Shown piece after piece: positions 3,829 to 8,416 of a stretch of 31,470 bases of DNA. A model generated the notes under the pieces. It ran no database searches. It had not been told where the DNA came from and was given only the letters and a program-made list of their open reading frames with translations. A program made the position numbers and the translations under genes. Where the stretch lies: the IMG/VR virus record IMGVR_UViG_2541047775_000008; one strand, given 5' to 3'. Each line of letters starts with the position of its first letter. Positions within the stretch are counted from its first letter, which is position 1. This DNA comes from a virus (Duplodnaviria; Heunggongvirae; Uroviricota; Caudoviricetes).

Positions 3829-4100
3829 GTATTCGTATTGAAATTGGCGAACGTTATGTCGTTACCAGTGACAGCTTTCAGTTTATTCTCCACGAGAAAA
3901 AGAGAGCGGAAAGCGGTAAAAACGCCGGTCAGGAATGGCTGGCGGTGGTTGGTTATTATCCGAAATTAAGCCAGCTCGTTTCCGGCCTGATGCATCACGA
4001 TATTCTGACCGGAAGCGCAAAGTCTTTTGCTGATTTAAACGCGCAGGTTGAGCAACTCAGCAGGCGTTGTTCAGAGGCTTTTGGCTCATATGGCCGTTAA
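3825..4100 (+). CDS. Hypothetical early protein, 91 aa (position of P2 orf83)
   Basis: RBS GGAG upstream of ATG 3825; overlaps start of A. Confidence 0.55.
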   Translation: MSIRIEIGERYVVTSDSFQFILHEKKRAESGKNAGQEWLAVVGYYPKLSQLVSGLMHHDILTGSAKSFADLNAQVEQLSRRCSEAFGSYGR

Positions 4101-6375
4101 AGCCTCCGGGCGTTTTGTCCCTCCTTCAGCATTTGCTGCAGGCACCGGTAAGGCGTTTACCGGTGCTTATGCATGGAACGCGCCACGCGAGGCCGTCGGG
4201 CGCGAAAGACCCCTTACACGTGACGAGATGCGTCAGGTGCAAGGTGTTTTATCCACGATTAACCGCCTGCCTTACTTTTTGCGTTCGCTGTTTACTTCAC
4301 GCTATGACTACATCCGGCGCAATAAAAGCCCGGTGCACGGGTTTTATTTCCTCACATCCACTTTTCAGCGTCGTTTATGGCCGCGCATTGAGCGCGTGAA
4401 TCAGCGCCATGAAATGAACACCGACGCGTCGTTGCTGTTTCTGGCAGAGCGTGACCATTATGCGCGTCTGCCGGGGATGAATGATAAGGAGCTGAAAAAG
4501 TTTGCCGCCCGTATTTCATCGCAGCTTTTCATGATGTATGAGGAACTCTGCGATGCCTGGGTGGATGCGCATGGCGAAAAAGAATCGCTGTTTACGGATG
4601 AGGCGCAGGCTCACCTCTATGGTCATGTTGCTGGCGCTGCACGTGCTTTCAATATTTCCCCTCTCTACTGGAAAAAATACCGTAAAGGACAGATGACCAC
4701 GAGGCAGGCATATTCTGCCATTGCCCGTCTGTTTAACGATGAGTGGTGGATTAGTCAGCTTAAAGGCCAGCGTATGCGCTGGCATGAAGCGTTACTGATA
4801 GCTGTCGGGGAGGTCAATAAAGACCGTTCTCCTTATGCCAGTAAACACGCCATTCGTGATGTGCGTGCGCGCCGCCAGGCAAATCTGGAATTTCTTAAAT
4901 CGTGTGACCTTGAAAACAGGGAAACCGGCGAGCGCATCGACCTTATCAGTAAGGTGATGGGCAGTATTTCTAATCCTGAAATTCGCCGGATGGAGCTGAT
5001 GAACACCATTGCCGGTATTGAGCGTTACGCCGCCGCAGAGGGTGATGTGGGGATGTTTATCACGCTGACCGCGCCGTCAAAGTATCACCCGACACGTCAG
5101 GTCGGAAAAGGCGAAAGAAAAACCGTCCAGCTTAATCACGGCTGGAATGATGAGGCATTTAATCCAAAGGATGCGCAGCGTTATCTCTGCCGTATCTGGA
5201 GCCTGATGCGCACGGCATTCAAGGATAATGATTTACAGGTCTACGGTTTGCGTGTCGTCGAGCCACACCACGACGGAACGCCGCACTGGCATATGATGCT
5301 TTTTTGTAATCCACGCCAGCGTAACCAGATTATCGAAATCATGCGTCGCTATGCGCTCAAAGAGGATGGTGACGAAAGAGGAGCCGCGCGAAACCGTTTT
5401 CAGGCAAAACACCTTAACCGGGGCGGTGCTGCGGGATATATCGCGAAATACATCTCAAAAAACATCGATGGCTATGCACTGGATGGTCAGCTCGATAACG
5501 ATACCGGCAGGCCGCTGAAAGACACAGCGGCGGCTGTTACCGCATGGGCGTCAACGTGGCGCATACCACAATTTAAAACGGTTGGCCTGCCGACAATGGG
5601 GGCTTACCGTGAACTACGCAAATTGCCTCGCGGCGTCAGCATTGCTGATGAGTTTGACGAGCGCGTCGAGGCTGCACGCGCCGCCGCAGACAGTGGTGAT
5701 TTTGCGTTGTATATCCGCGCGCAGGGTGGGGCAAATGTCCCGCGCGATTGTCAGACTGTCAGGGTCGCCCGTAGCCCGTCGGATGACGTTAACGAGTACG
5801 AGGAAGAGGTCGAGAGAGTGGTCGGCATTTACGCACCGCATCTCGGCGCGCGTCATATTCATATCACCAGAACGACGGAGTGGCGCATTGTGCCGAAAGT
5901 TCCGGTCGTTGAGCCTTTGACTTTAAAAAGCGGCATCGCCGCGCCTCGGAGTCCTGTCAATAACTGTGGAAAGCTCACCGGTGGTGATACTTCGTTACCG
6001 GCTCCCACACCTTCTGAGCACGCCGCAGCAGTGCTAAATCTGGTTGATGACGGTGTTATCGAATGGAATGACCCGGAGGTCGTGAGGACGCTCAGGGGTG
6101 CATTAAAACACGGCCTGAAAACACCAAATCGTCAGCAAAGAAACGGAAGTCCGTTAAAACCACATGAAATAGCACCGTCGGCCAGACTGACCCGGTCGGA
6201 ACGATTGCAAATTACCCGTATCCGCGTTGACCTTGCTCAGAACGGTATCAGGCCGCAGCGATGGGAGCTTGAGGCGCTGGCGCGTGGCGCGACCGTAAAT
6301 TATGACGGGAAAAAATTCACGTATCCGGTCGCTGATGAGTGGCCGGGATTCTCAACAGTAATGGCGCGGACATAA
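4090..6375 (+). CDS. A: Replication initiation protein A (rolling-circle nickase), 761 aa
   Basis: Sequence from MAVKASGRFVPPSAFAAGTGK onward matches what I recall of P2 gpA; length 761 aa equals P2 A. ORF-track start at 4048 is an upstream in-frame extension. Confidence 0.92.
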   Translation: MAVKASGRFVPPSAFAAGTGKAFTGAYAWNAPREAVGRERPLTRDEMRQVQGVLSTINRLPYFLRSLFTSRYDYIRRNKSPVHGFYFLTSTFQRRLWPRIERVNQRHEMNTDASLLFLAERDHYARLPGMNDKELKKFAARISSQLFMMYEELCDAWVDAHGEKESLFTDEAQAHLYGHVAGAARAFNISPLYWKKYRKGQMTTRQAYSAIARLFNDEWWISQLKGQRMRWHEALLIAVGEVNKDRSPYASKHAIRDVRARRQANLEFLKSCDLENRETGERIDLISKVMGSISNPEIRRMELMNTIAGIERYAAAEGDVGMFITLTAPSKYHPTRQVGKGERKTVQLNHGWNDEAFNPKDAQRYLCRIWSLMRTAFKDNDLQVYGLRVVEPHHDGTPHWHMMLFCNPRQRNQIIEIMRRYALKEDGDERGAARNRFQAKHLNRGGAAGYIAKYISKNIDGYALDGQLDNDTGRPLKDTAAAVTAWASTWRIPQFKTVGLPTMGAYRELRKLPRGVSIADEFDERVEAARAAADSGDFALYIRAQGGANVPRDCQTVRVARSPSDDVNEYEEEVERVVGIYAPHLGARHIHITRTTEWRIVPKVPVVEPLTLKSGIAAPRSPVNNCGKLTGGDTSLPAPTPSEHAAAVLNLVDDGVIEWNDPEVVRTLRGALKHGLKTPNRQQRNGSPLKPHEIAPSARLTRSERLQITRIRVDLAQNGIRPQRWELEALARGATVNYDGKKFTYPVADEWPGFSTVMART

Positions 6376-6827
6376 TGACAAAGATTCACAAAGTAAAGCT
6401 GCACGCAAAATATTTCGACCTTGTGCTGGAAGGAAAGAAACGCGCAGAGTTTCGGAAAAATGACCGTAATTATGAGCGCGGAGACACGTTGATTTTGCAT
6501 GAATGGGGGCAGGGTGTGTATACGGGGCGAAAGGTTGAAGCCCGGATAACAGATGTTACTGACCTGTCAGACTGGCTGGAAGATTATGTCTTGCTAAGTA
6601 TTGAGCTGCTTAATACAGGCGCATATGAGATTGTGAACTGGAAAGAACTTAGTGAGCGTGGTCTGGTATTCAGAATTAATCATGAAATTATGCATCAGCT
6701 CGGCCTTGCTGTTATGTATGAACCAGAGACGGGGATGTCTGGCGGGGCAATGGTTGCCACGGATGGAGCATGGAACTATTCAGATGAACAGATTGAGCGT
6801 GCAAAGCAAAACGGGTGGCTTGGATAA
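6375..6827 (+). CDS. ASCH/DUF3850-like domain protein, 150 aa
   Basis: N-terminal region KIHKVKLHAKYFDLVLEGKKRAEFRKNDRNYERGDTLILHEW fits the ASCH-like DUF3850 pattern. ATG overlaps A stop (TAATG). C-terminal 70 aa unassigned. Confidence 0.6.
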   Translation: MTKIHKVKLHAKYFDLVLEGKKRAEFRKNDRNYERGDTLILHEWGQGVYTGRKVEARITDVTDLSDWLEDYVLLSIELLNTGAYEIVNWKELSERGLVFRINHEIMHQLGLAVMYEPETGMSGGAMVATDGAWNYSDEQIERAKQNGWLG

Positions 6828-7030
6828 TGCACAGAATACCAGGCGAGATACCGCAACATAACACTAAAAATATCAAGCTGATGGCTATTGTTCACCGTCT
6901 ACAGCAGATTATGGTCAACGAAAATCTGACGCCCGACGAGTTGGTCGGGTGTGCCGAAATAGTCCGGGATAATTACGTGCGGTTTAACGATATAGAACAG
7001 TCTAAAATTGCACTGCTACCACGTTGTTGA
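6827..7030 (+). CDS. Hypothetical small protein, 67 aa
   Basis: ATG overlapping upstream stop (TAATG), suggesting translational coupling. No recognisable domain. Confidence 0.4.
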   Translation: MHRIPGEIPQHNTKNIKLMAIVHRLQQIMVNENLTPDELVGCAEIVRDNYVRFNDIEQSKIALLPRC

Positions 7031-7041
7031 TAGAAAACCCC

Positions 7042-7072
7042 AGCAGTACTGAAACATGCTTCCAGTGCTGCT
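7042..7072 (+). other. Stem-loop (10-bp stem with one G-U pair, 11-nt loop) at the backbone/cargo boundary
   Basis: AGCAGTACTG (7042..7051) pairs with CAGTGCTGCT (7063..7072), 12 nt after the stop at 7028..7030. No following U-tract. Confidence 0.3.
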
Positions 7073-7299
7073 GGAGGGAACAACGAACAGCGAGAGGTGG
7101 TAGTTGGCCATCATTTGAGTATCAGCATATGATTGGATTTATAACGGTTGGAAAGATTAATGTTGGTGAACTAATAAATTACAAATATTCACAAGAAGAT
7201 CTTATGTTACTAACATGAGTTTATGTGTAATATAGCTGTACATACCAATATCCGCTGTACCTTTGTTTTTATTTGGTTTGTCAGGTGTCACAGGTATGG

Positions 7300-7328
7300 T
7301 TGGCGTATGAGAATGGTTTATTTAAATT
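7300..7328 (+). promoter_or_regulatory. Candidate sigma70 promoter for the cargo gene
   Basis: TTGGCG (7300..7305), 17-bp spacer, TAAATT (7323..7328), about 30 nt upstream of ATG 7357. Hexamer choice is tentative in AT-rich DNA. Confidence 0.25.
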
Positions 7329-7356
7329 AAATATTGATTAAGGTTGAAAGAATGTC

Positions 7357-8253
7357 ATGAATAAAAGTAAAGCAATCTCAAGAATAGAGAGAGTGTTGAG
7401 AAGATTAAAGGATGGGAGTTTCACTGATAGTGATATTGATGTTCTTTTTGTTACGGCCCGTGAGTTGCCGAGTGCGCCCAAGTGTATTTTTGAAATTGGG
7501 AGTTTTGTTGCCCATAATCATCGGAGAGATCAAGGCGAGATAAAGGATATCATGCTGAGGAATCATTTGTTATTAAGTTTAAAATTTGGACGCGATAAGC
7601 ATGCTGTTAAACCAGAGTTAAATGAATACCCGAAATACTTACCTACATTAATCAGACTGCAATTAAGAATGTTCAGTGATGAGTTTTTAAAGGAGAAGTT
7701 AAACTTAAAGGGGGGGCAGGTAATTACAGCGAGGAAGAAGCTTAATAACAAGAAATCGTATATTGTTAATGATGGTGTTTGTAAGTTAACACCAGAAATT
7801 GGTTCCAATGAAGGGCGAATGATTAATGAAGCTTTGTCGTTACTCAATTGTTCTGACGCAATTAAGTTCGACTCTTTGTTTAATGAGCTGAAAATATTGC
7901 TTCGGAAGGAGATTCCAGGGGTGGACTTGATGCCGCTTGATAATAACAGGAGAGCAATAGCAGGCATCTTACTGTGTTTGTTGAATAATATTGATTTTTC
8001 TCTGATGCCTGAAGTCAAAGCAAAAACAGTCCTTAGTCTTAATGATGCAGATAAATCTGCAAATGTTTATGGTCAATATTATATAACACATGAAAAAGAG
8101 CCATTCACCGACGTGGCTATCATGAGCCCAGTGTTTCAGTCGGGGTATGATGTTAGTGACCTTTTTGATGAGCATGTGACAAATGAAAATATCGTAAATG
8201 GGGATGTCGAATTTAGTTTTGATTTGGGGAAAATAGTTGTGTCGAAATCATAG
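7357..8253 (+). CDS. Unassigned 298-aa protein on an AT-rich cargo island at the tin/old position; candidate anti-phage defence or other moron
   Basis: Long uninterrupted ORF in visibly AT-rich DNA (stop codons are frequent there, so a 298-codon ORF is unlikely by chance). Compositional break from flanking phage DNA. Location between A-proximal genes and cos. No motif I recognise. Confidence 0.75.
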   Translation: MNKSKAISRIERVLRRLKDGSFTDSDIDVLFVTARELPSAPKCIFEIGSFVAHNHRRDQGEIKDIMLRNHLLLSLKFGRDKHAVKPELNEYPKYLPTLIRLQLRMFSDEFLKEKLNLKGGQVITARKKLNNKKSYIVNDGVCKLTPEIGSNEGRMINEALSLLNCSDAIKFDSLFNELKILLRKEIPGVDLMPLDNNRRAIAGILLCLLNNIDFSLMPEVKAKTVLSLNDADKSANVYGQYYITHEKEPFTDVAIMSPVFQSGYDVSDLFDEHVTNENIVNGDVEFSFDLGKIVVSKS

Positions 8254-8293
8254 TTTAGACCCAAACGAGCACGTTCCTAATTTCCCTTCAATA

Positions 8294-8340
8294 CATGCAT
8301 TTAGTGCATGATTTTGCATGCGGCAGCGATCGTTTTTTAT
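8294..8340 (+). terminator. Possible terminator region downstream of the cargo gene
   Basis: Hairpin CATGCA (8294..8299) / TGCATG (8305..8310), then T-rich tract including TTTTTT at 8333..8338. Confidence 0.3.
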
Positions 8341-8416
8341 TGTTTATAATCGCCTGTATTGACGATGTTTTGATGTGTTATTGCAACTGCATTAAAAGCG
8401 CTCCATGAAGCGGGCG

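Follow-up and report, generated by a model that had tools for sequence, protein, structure and literature searches.

The ORF150-ORF67 gene pair of a P2-like prophage: a probable early-operon extension at the left border of the A-Q hotspot

Introduction

The virus record IMGVR_UViG_2541047775_000008, a stretch of 31,470 nucleotides (nt) referred to here at its full length as the window, is a P2-like (Peduovirus) prophage in which the variable hotspot between genes A and Q opens with two small open reading frames (ORFs) on the + strand, ORF150 (6375..6827) and ORF67 (6827..7030), named for the lengths of their products in amino acids (aa). Do these genes belong to the conserved phage backbone or to the cargo that is exchanged at this site, and what might their products do? 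The initial annotation of this DNA had offered both a conserved border gene and a partnership with the downstream 298-aa cargo gene as options. The distinction has practical weight, since mining of the hotspot for defence systems takes all A-to-Q genes, and ORF150 and ORF67 are thereby counted in candidate systems (PMC9122126). As described below, ORF150, ORF67 and a structured element of ~72 nt that follows them constitute the conserved left flank of the A-Q hotspot, and the pair is very probably backbone of the early operon rather than cargo. The reading favoured here, to which a probability of roughly 0.6 is assigned, is that these are accessory genes, the last two of the P2-type early (replication) operon; that their products act as an adaptor with a nucleic-acid-binding head is a less probable part of this reading.

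The ORF150-ORF67 pair and its cargo neighbours

All 56 IMG/VR loci with a full-length ORF150 also carry ORF67, and the stretch from ORF67 to Q in this set accounts for 26 of 29 DNA clusters in total, the other three belonging to truncated forms of ORF150. The cargo proteins fall into 43 families, including C5 DNA methylase, GmrSD_N, AAA, GHKL and AbiEii-like ATPases, and in one locus (L020) the pair is present with no cargo and just 542 nt to Q. A second comparative set was provided by complete genomes of Escherichia coli, counted against the 2160 that match the A or Q border; the pair is found in 345 of these, the 298-aa gene in only 25, and the copies of the latter are at least 99.4% identical in all 25 genomes. 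A contig scan with ORF150 had previously given one locus only. Base composition also changes at the border, with a guanine-plus-cytosine (GC) content of ~54% in A, ~46% in the pair and 33-39% in the cargo, the step lying at ~7100. Because the pair adjoins 26 cargo clusters, the genome counts differ and the GC content steps, a partnership with the cargo is unsupported, and the suggestion that the pair works with the 298-aa gene is set aside in favour of the border-gene option, the pair being fixed beside some 26 unrelated cargo sets. Neither do ORF150 and ORF67 co-vary with the neighbouring cargo, as genes of a defence cargo would. Searches of PADLOC returned no match for ORF67 or the 298-aa protein and, for ORF150, only PDC-M11B with an E-value of 0.025 over 20 residues; NCBIfam gave no match for any of the three proteins.

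Many chromosomal matches in the similarity-search output carry an identical low record coordinate for a given query (1911, 2286, 2738 and 3021 for query starts 6000, 6375, 6827 and 7110, respectively); these values are possibly unreliable for some records, and the conclusions drawn here do not rest on coordinates of this kind.

The published survey of the A-Q hotspot took every gene between A and Q, and its table of arrangements therefore lists 'DUF3850/ASCH + hypothetical...' (PMC9122126; Rousset et al.). Similarly, orf91 was included in the cloned old-tin construct (PMC9122126). If the pair is backbone, the true left border of the hotspot would instead lie after the ~72-nt element, at window position 7103.

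The pair is physically tied to the replication initiator gene A (4048..6375, + strand; 775 aa), which shares 97-99% identity with A of P2, of Wphi and of the IMG/VR loci and is annotated in P2 and Wphi as 'nicking at origin of replication'. The ATG of ORF150 overlaps the stop codon of A within a TAATG at 6373-6377, and ORF67 starts on the stop codon of ORF150, again within TAATG. The second overlap (GGATAATGC) is kept in 56 of 58 related loci, and that between A and ORF150 takes the form ATGA or TAATG, so that the translational coupling described in the initial annotation stands and extends to gene A. The same order, A-orf91-orf92, is annotated in Wphi and in part in P2. Promoter-like matches in the region number 8 where 5.6 are expected, and are thus not above chance. 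Both genes are under purifying selection, as indicated by ratios of non-synonymous to synonymous diversity (pN/pS) of 0.30 for ORF150 and 0.27 for codons 1-56 of ORF67, the shifted frames of the latter giving 0.79 and 1.29.

Relationship to P2 orf91 and Wphi orf91-orf92

The initial annotation held that ORF150 is not a core P2 gene, a statement that is incorrect. P2 Orf91 (NP_046796) shares 93% identity with ORF150 over residues 1-74 and occupies the same position, closing the early operon with an overlap onto the A stop codon. The DNA match between P2 and the window ends at 6595 (codon 74), after which P2 Orf91 continues from its DUF3850 residues 1-74 into an unrelated tail of 34 residues, followed by tin and old. 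From this stop in homology and the unrelated tail it follows that the form in the window is intact and that of P2 truncated; ORF150 is, by sequence, the full-length homologue of P2 orf91, which is itself the truncated remnant of a two-domain gene. P2 thus differs from the window in having neither the DUF7415 domain (see below) nor ORF67 nor the border hairpin. Remnants of ORF150 persist in other loci as 79-aa forms or 26-aa stubs, and cargo replacement has therefore repeatedly cut into the ORF150 gene from its right side.

Wphi and ~20 other Peduovirus genomes match the window through both ORFs in a DNA search. In Wphi, the match covers window positions 6000-7070 and the pair corresponds to orf91 and orf92, although Wphi orf91, unlike ORF150, ends at 92 aa through a frameshift or premature stop within DUF7415. 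In PSP3, on the other hand, the homologue of ORF67 (gp37) comes after tumA and tumB (DinI-like) and not after an ASCH protein. Both genes of the window are, in short, already known, albeit as uncharacterised families (P2 orf91, Wphi orf91-92 and PSP3 gp37).

Domain architecture of ORF150

ORF150 is covered over its full length by phrog_1812, which has no assigned function in PHROGs, and is comprised of two domains. The N-terminal domain (residues 4-76; 6384..6602, + strand) matches PF12961 (DUF3850) with 65.2 bits against a cut-off of 22.9 (E 6.4e-18) over the full model (1-77), and PF04266 (ASCH) with 44.0 bits against a cut-off of 21.2 (E 3.8e-11), both above the gathering threshold, in agreement with the ASCH/DUF3850 assignment made initially. 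The extra C-terminal region also noted there is the DUF7415 domain (PF24187; 54.0 bits, cut-off 27, E 1.9e-14), with a Pfam envelope of residues 86-128 and a predicted fold unit that reaches residue 150 (6630..6824, + strand). An AlphaFold2 model of ORF150, with a mean predicted local distance difference test score (pLDDT) of 89.4, displays an N-terminal β-barrel and a C-terminal succession of helix, helix, β-hairpin and helix.

The predicted barrel is of the PUA-like β-barrel fold and carries the segments G20-K-K22-R-A-E25-F-R27 and N29-D-R31, with K22, R23, E25, R27 and N29-D30-R31 conserved as a basic motif, together with G36-D37. The sole relative by sequence with a solved structure is 3IUW (E 4.6e-13), an 83-aa 'activating signal cointegrator' from Enterococcus faecalis resolved by structural genomics, which like ORF150 is a DUF3850/ASCH protein but, in contrast to it, is a single domain without DUF7415 and does not come from a P2-like phage. 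E. coli YqfB (an N4-acetylcytidine amidohydrolase), YTH, EVE/THYN1 and the N-terminal domain of McrB show no more than 15% identity to the DUF3850 head, whose barrel of ~77 aa is shorter than YqfB and other ASCH/PUA-like proteins; no claim is made for an enzyme or a reader of modified bases. The head is proposed to be a small PUA-like module that would bind nucleic acid, whether RNA, single-stranded DNA (ssDNA) or a modified base. A further use of DUF3850 as a module is seen in prophage fusions of ParB-CTPase and DUF3850 beside parA (PMC12704722), from which ORF150 is distinguished by its partner domain, DUF7415, and by lacking both ParB-CTPase and an adjacent parA. A putative partition system is present in roughly one in four P2-like hotspots (PMC9122126).

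The core of DUF7415, GL[VI]FRIN.E[IV]LHP.GLA, is conserved in two alignments (A3 and A5). Its H103-E-I-M-H107 segment resembles the HExxH motif of zincin metalloproteases, but the first His is replaced by Tyr in Salmonella and by Lys in a fusion protein (L126, see below), and since this residue is not conserved a zincin was discounted; only N102, E104 and H107 are conserved in the region. A search of the literature returned nothing on DUF7415.

DUF7415 neighbourhoods and fusions

DUF7415 is a small family whose neighbours and fusion partners offer clues to function. Among 1.84 billion proteins the domain was found in 193 representative clusters (E ≤ 0.001), where it occurs as a stand-alone protein of 53-90 aa or at the N- or C-terminus of longer proteins. 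Pfam partners in the 76 longer members are three kinds of enzyme acting on nucleotides or nucleic acids, namely dATP/dGTP pyrophosphohydrolase (3), thymidylate kinase and a 3'-5' exoribonuclease, together with DUF3850 (2), DUF551, PGDYG and a ClpX-type zinc finger.

DUF7415 lies beside a replication initiator gene, encoding either gpA or a Toprim primase, in six arrangements. In the window, the DUF3850-DUF7415 protein follows A, whereas in L153 another head joined to DUF7415 overlaps the end of GPA; a 63-aa ORF coupled to this DUF7415 gene was considered as a relative of ORF67 and is not ORF67-like. In a P2-like prophage of Lelliottia (L148/L149:3293-6444), a 902-aa Toprim primase occupies the place of gpA and a DUF7415 protein with another head overlaps its end, followed by Dam methylase, ogr, Q and P. 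A fourth arrangement (L147) involves a 188-aa protein, P0190 (L147:2597-3163), whose gene immediately follows that of an 858-aa Toprim/Walker-A replication protein and is itself followed by a Gp49-like gene; in P0190, a segment resembling ORF67 is joined to DUF7415 by way of a weak ClpX-type zinc finger, and its N-terminus matches the ORF67 profile with an hhalign probability of 90.9% (E 1.2e-6). In L126, a DUF5405(orf83-like)-DUF7415 fusion directly precedes A, and in L150 a DUF7415 protein and a Dam methylase precede GPA in that order. DUF7415 thereby acquires a testable context, that of initiator genes of two unrelated types and of fusions to enzymes of nucleotide metabolism.

The PSP3-type loci (L126:3282-4048; L121:2664-3214; L131:3502-4052) hold the same domains upstream of A, in the order DUF3850 (98 aa), DUF5405-DUF7415 fusion (157 aa) and A, or DUF5405, DUF3850 and A, the stand-alone DUF3850 gene being directly upstream of A in L121 and L131. 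The family phrog_33705, which matches both the orf83 homologue of the window and the C-terminal half of ORF150, corresponds to this DUF5405-DUF7415 fusion.

The ORF67 protein

ORF67 is a separate, conserved helical-hairpin protein that matches phrog_11386 and, in a Pfam search, no family. Homologues of 67-81 aa are found in E. coli, Salmonella, Enterobacter, Citrobacter, Klebsiella and Buttiauxella, with 16 residues of the core (residues 8-48) invariant across these genera and a C-terminal tail that varies, being rich in Pro and Arg in the majority of relatives. AlphaFold2 predicts helices at residues 10-32 and 36-62 arranged as a two-helix hairpin (pLDDT 80), for which Foldseek returned no match in the PDB and a sequence-profile search only chance matches at E ~1.

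ORF67 shares 68% identity with Wphi gp92 and 78% with PSP3 gp37. In PSP3-type (Eganvirus) loci, where gpA is only ~37% identical to that of the window, ORF67 is 73-84% identical and, following tumA/tumB, still the last gene ahead of the variable region. It is also seen behind other genes, for example DUF2158 and a 226-aa protein, and at a coverage of at least 80% is present in 415 E. coli genomes as compared with 345 for the pair. ORF67 is not an obligate partner of ORF150, given that at least 15 loci carry it without ORF150.

The border element after ORF67

Directly 3' of the ORF67 stop codon, an element of ~72 nt (7031..7103, + strand) recurs in 130 of 133 loci of both Peduovirus and PSP3 type. 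It is comprised of a hairpin and a conserved tail that ends in ..GGTAG (consensus ..GGCGTTAG). In an alignment anchored on the last base of the element, column identity remains at 0.85-1.0 up to that base and is ~0.4 beyond it, with 46 distinct downstream sequences compared; loci that differ in cargo lose their homology exactly after ..GGCGTTAG. The element is found, unannotated, in 522 E. coli genomes and ORF67 in 545, the two co-occurring one to one.

The first 40 nt fold into a 15-bp hairpin (window 7038-7077) with a predicted energy of -31.9 kcal/mol and a z-score of -4.2. In an analysis of 29 distinct variants, pairing is retained in 96% of cells, and compensatory double changes occur at 9 pairs, compared with 3.0 ± 1.0 in shuffled alignments (0 of 500 shuffles) and 1-4 in slid controls. 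Only the + strand is rich in G-U pairs, a bias that suggests a structure in the early transcript or in single-stranded + DNA and not a cruciform. Rfam contains no corresponding family, the search giving only a sub-threshold match to mir-15 (23.8 bits against a gathering score of 57.3).

Like intrinsic terminators and integron attC sites, the element is a stable and covarying hairpin that closes an operon and meets variable cassettes at a precise junction, but it is a member of neither class: unlike a canonical intrinsic terminator it has no T-run after the stem, and in distinction to attC there is no integrase-type recombinase adjacent and its GTTAG end misfits the GTTRRRY core. Two short motifs were also considered and set aside, the 8-mer GCGAGGCG common to the element and the cos region being judged within chance and the near-Chi octamer GCTGGCGG in the hairpin not being conserved in the window copy.

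In the window, the element and the last ~10 codons of ORF67 form a diverged variant (~70% identity) that is found only with the 298-aa cargo, a pattern that fits exchange of cargo by recombination at two places, inside ORF67 at the left end and in the cos/Q block at the right. A recent survey of P2/P4 hotspots states the mechanism of exchange as unknown and mentions no such element (PMC13586616; 2026 NAR); a structured element at the exact border may bear on this question.

A 64-aa ORF with a TTG start (7024-7218) overlaps the border hairpin and the AT-rich spacer; no family matches this ORF, which is most likely non-coding.

Proposed role of the pair and alternative explanations

From their order and coupling, ORF150 and ORF67 would be expressed from the early promoter Pe, alongside the replication initiator gpA, in the lytic cycle. 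DUF7415 is proposed to serve as a docking (adaptor) domain that brings variable heads to the replication or nucleotide-metabolism machinery of the phage, the head in ORF150 being the putative PUA-like binder of RNA, ssDNA or a modified base, while ORF67 may be a small partner or regulator able to act with DUF7415. The hairpin 3' of ORF67 probably takes shape in the early transcript, where it would be a 3'-end or terminator-like structure, and ORF67 and the hairpin as a block could provide the left homology arm for exchange of cargo among P2-like phages. This specific combination of adaptor and nucleic-acid binding is put forward tentatively, and is clearly less secure than the placement of the genes at the end of the early operon.

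Several observations weigh against this interpretation. The pair is absent from most P2-like prophages, being carried by ~16% of the border-matching E. coli genomes (345/2160), and is dispensable in evolution, as attested by the truncated DUF3850 stub of P2 and the 79-aa and 26-aa remnants elsewhere; the proposal that it stands beside gene A whatever the cargo is accordingly upheld as to its recurrence with unrelated cargo, but not as to invariance. ORF67 occurs without any DUF3850 or DUF7415 gene in the 15 or more loci noted above, and its fusion to DUF7415 is known from a single metagenomic contig of 3.5 kb. In T4-like phages, DUF7415 is found as a stand-alone protein among small hypothetical early genes with no clear replication neighbour, and a structure search with its predicted fold gave no match in the PDB. 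A terminator scan did not report 7038-7077, the stem being followed by GGGAACAACG with no run of T. Annotated homologues give no biochemical function, the entry for P2 Orf91 reading 'unknown' (PMC3091744), and the adaptor idea itself is drawn only from gene neighbourhood and domain fusions.

One alternative is that the pair is a counter-defence (anti-immunity) module, in which the ligand bound or sequestered by the head would be a modified nucleotide, an immune signal or a host RNA, and the target of DUF7415 and ORF67 a host defence factor. The genes are early, small, dispensable and patchy in distribution, a typical profile for anti-defence genes; lytic T4-like, T5-like and T7-like phages widely carry DUF3850 and DUF7415 as small genes of their own; and the ParB-CTPase-DUF3850 fusions have been suggested to function in anti-defence or phage-host interaction (10.1101/2025.10.10.680097). 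The small size, early expression and dispensability of these genes, and their frequency in lytic phages, keep counter-defence a serious rival, and it is not fully exclusive of a replication-linked role, yet it is considered unlikely: no homology to described anti-defence proteins was found in the searches made, and both the adjacency to gpA and Toprim initiators and the fusions to nucleotide-metabolism enzymes are simpler under a role linked to replication. More improbable still is that the pair is mainly a DNA or RNA border device, with ORF67 and the hairpin kept as a recombination anchor or transcript end and the proteins secondary. The exact end of homology in 46 downstream contexts and the one-to-one occurrence of element and ORF67 would both suit such a device, as would the confinement of the ORF67 tail and hairpin variant of the window to the 298-aa cargo; a crossover zone nearby would likewise be expected to yield the higher synonymous diversity (pS) of ORF67 relative to ORF150 (0.14 vs 0.055) and the mosaic ORF67 variants seen inside one cargo cluster. 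ORF67 is nonetheless constrained as a protein, with its low pN/pS against 0.8-1.3 in the shifted frames and its invariant residues across genera, and so is ORF150, whose place is deep within the conserved block; a border role would also fail to explain why, in other phages, genes for DUF7415 and DUF3850 are situated upstream of A. A related and slightly less probable conjecture makes ORF67 and the covarying hairpin a dedicated cassette-exchange site, structure-directed or site-specific, possibly operating on the ssDNA of gpA rolling-circle replication, with the DUF7415 and ORF67 proteins providing the tie to the initiator. Were this so, the site would define the entry point of new defence cargo in P2-like phages and explain the very fast swapping of cargo without pseudogenes, the mechanism of which is open in PMC13586616.

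Two further explanations treat the genes as parts of a self-contained system, and both are very improbable. That ORF150, ORF67 and the 298-aa gene form one cargo-borne, multi-gene defence system might be read from the listing of 'DUF3850/ASCH + hypothetical...' among hotspot arrangements and the cloning of orf91 with old-tin (PMC9122126), and the 298-aa gene is indeed always accompanied by the pair in complete E. coli genomes (25/25). The reverse fails, however, with the pair found beside ~26 other cargo sets, once with none, and in 345 genomes as opposed to 25. In addition, a gap of 327 nt containing the border element separates ORF67 from the cargo, across which GC content falls from ~46% to ~35%, PADLOC gave no match to a known system for the three proteins beyond the short, weak hit of ORF150, and the near-identity of the 25 cargo copies points to one recent acquisition. 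Least probable is a toxin-antitoxin or addiction pair, an idea to which two small, translationally coupled genes on a mobile element lend themselves. It is rejected on distribution, as each gene occurs without the other: P2, L061 and L062 have DUF3850-only forms and no ORF67, while ORF67 is without ORF150 in at least 15 loci. Searches of Pfam, NCBIfam and PADLOC linked neither protein to a toxin or antitoxin family, and both genes depend on translation of the upstream gene A and not on an autoregulated promoter. An accessory extension of the early operon is thus retained as the preferred reading; it reveals no new kind of system, and what is left of most interest is the association of DUF7415 with initiators and the covarying border hairpin.

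Other features of the hotspot

The 298-aa gene (7357..8253, + strand) lies outside the unit described here by its distribution and GC content. Its product matches phrog_29586 and nothing in Pfam, PADLOC or NCBIfam, and is a candidate for a single-gene defence or exclusion protein. In two of the 25 genomes that carry it (H330 and H331), an IS903B element splits the cargo-region match (query 7110-8370).

Another cargo family, F0 (for example, L040 cargo 212-985), is comprised of proteins of 251-257 aa with an N-terminal transmembrane segment and no Pfam match. Seven different cargo clusters open, after ORF67, with an F0 gene, and the second gene differs in every one; a homologue is found upstream of ORF67 in a PSP3-type locus (L121:6090-6821). 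F0 may be semi-conserved at the hotspot, or it may supply the constant half of two-gene systems.

At the opposite end of the hotspot, the portal gene Q and the terminase gene P lie on the minus strand from 8605. Some 70-140 nt before the conserved cos-proximal block (..TGCAACTGCATTAAAACCGCCCCATGAAGCGGGCGGGCGAGGCGGGG..), at window ~8290-8376 and equivalent positions, many loci with different cargo share a feature with a CATGC start and a GCCAGTGCTGGCGC-like motif, which may be a second semi-conserved border element.

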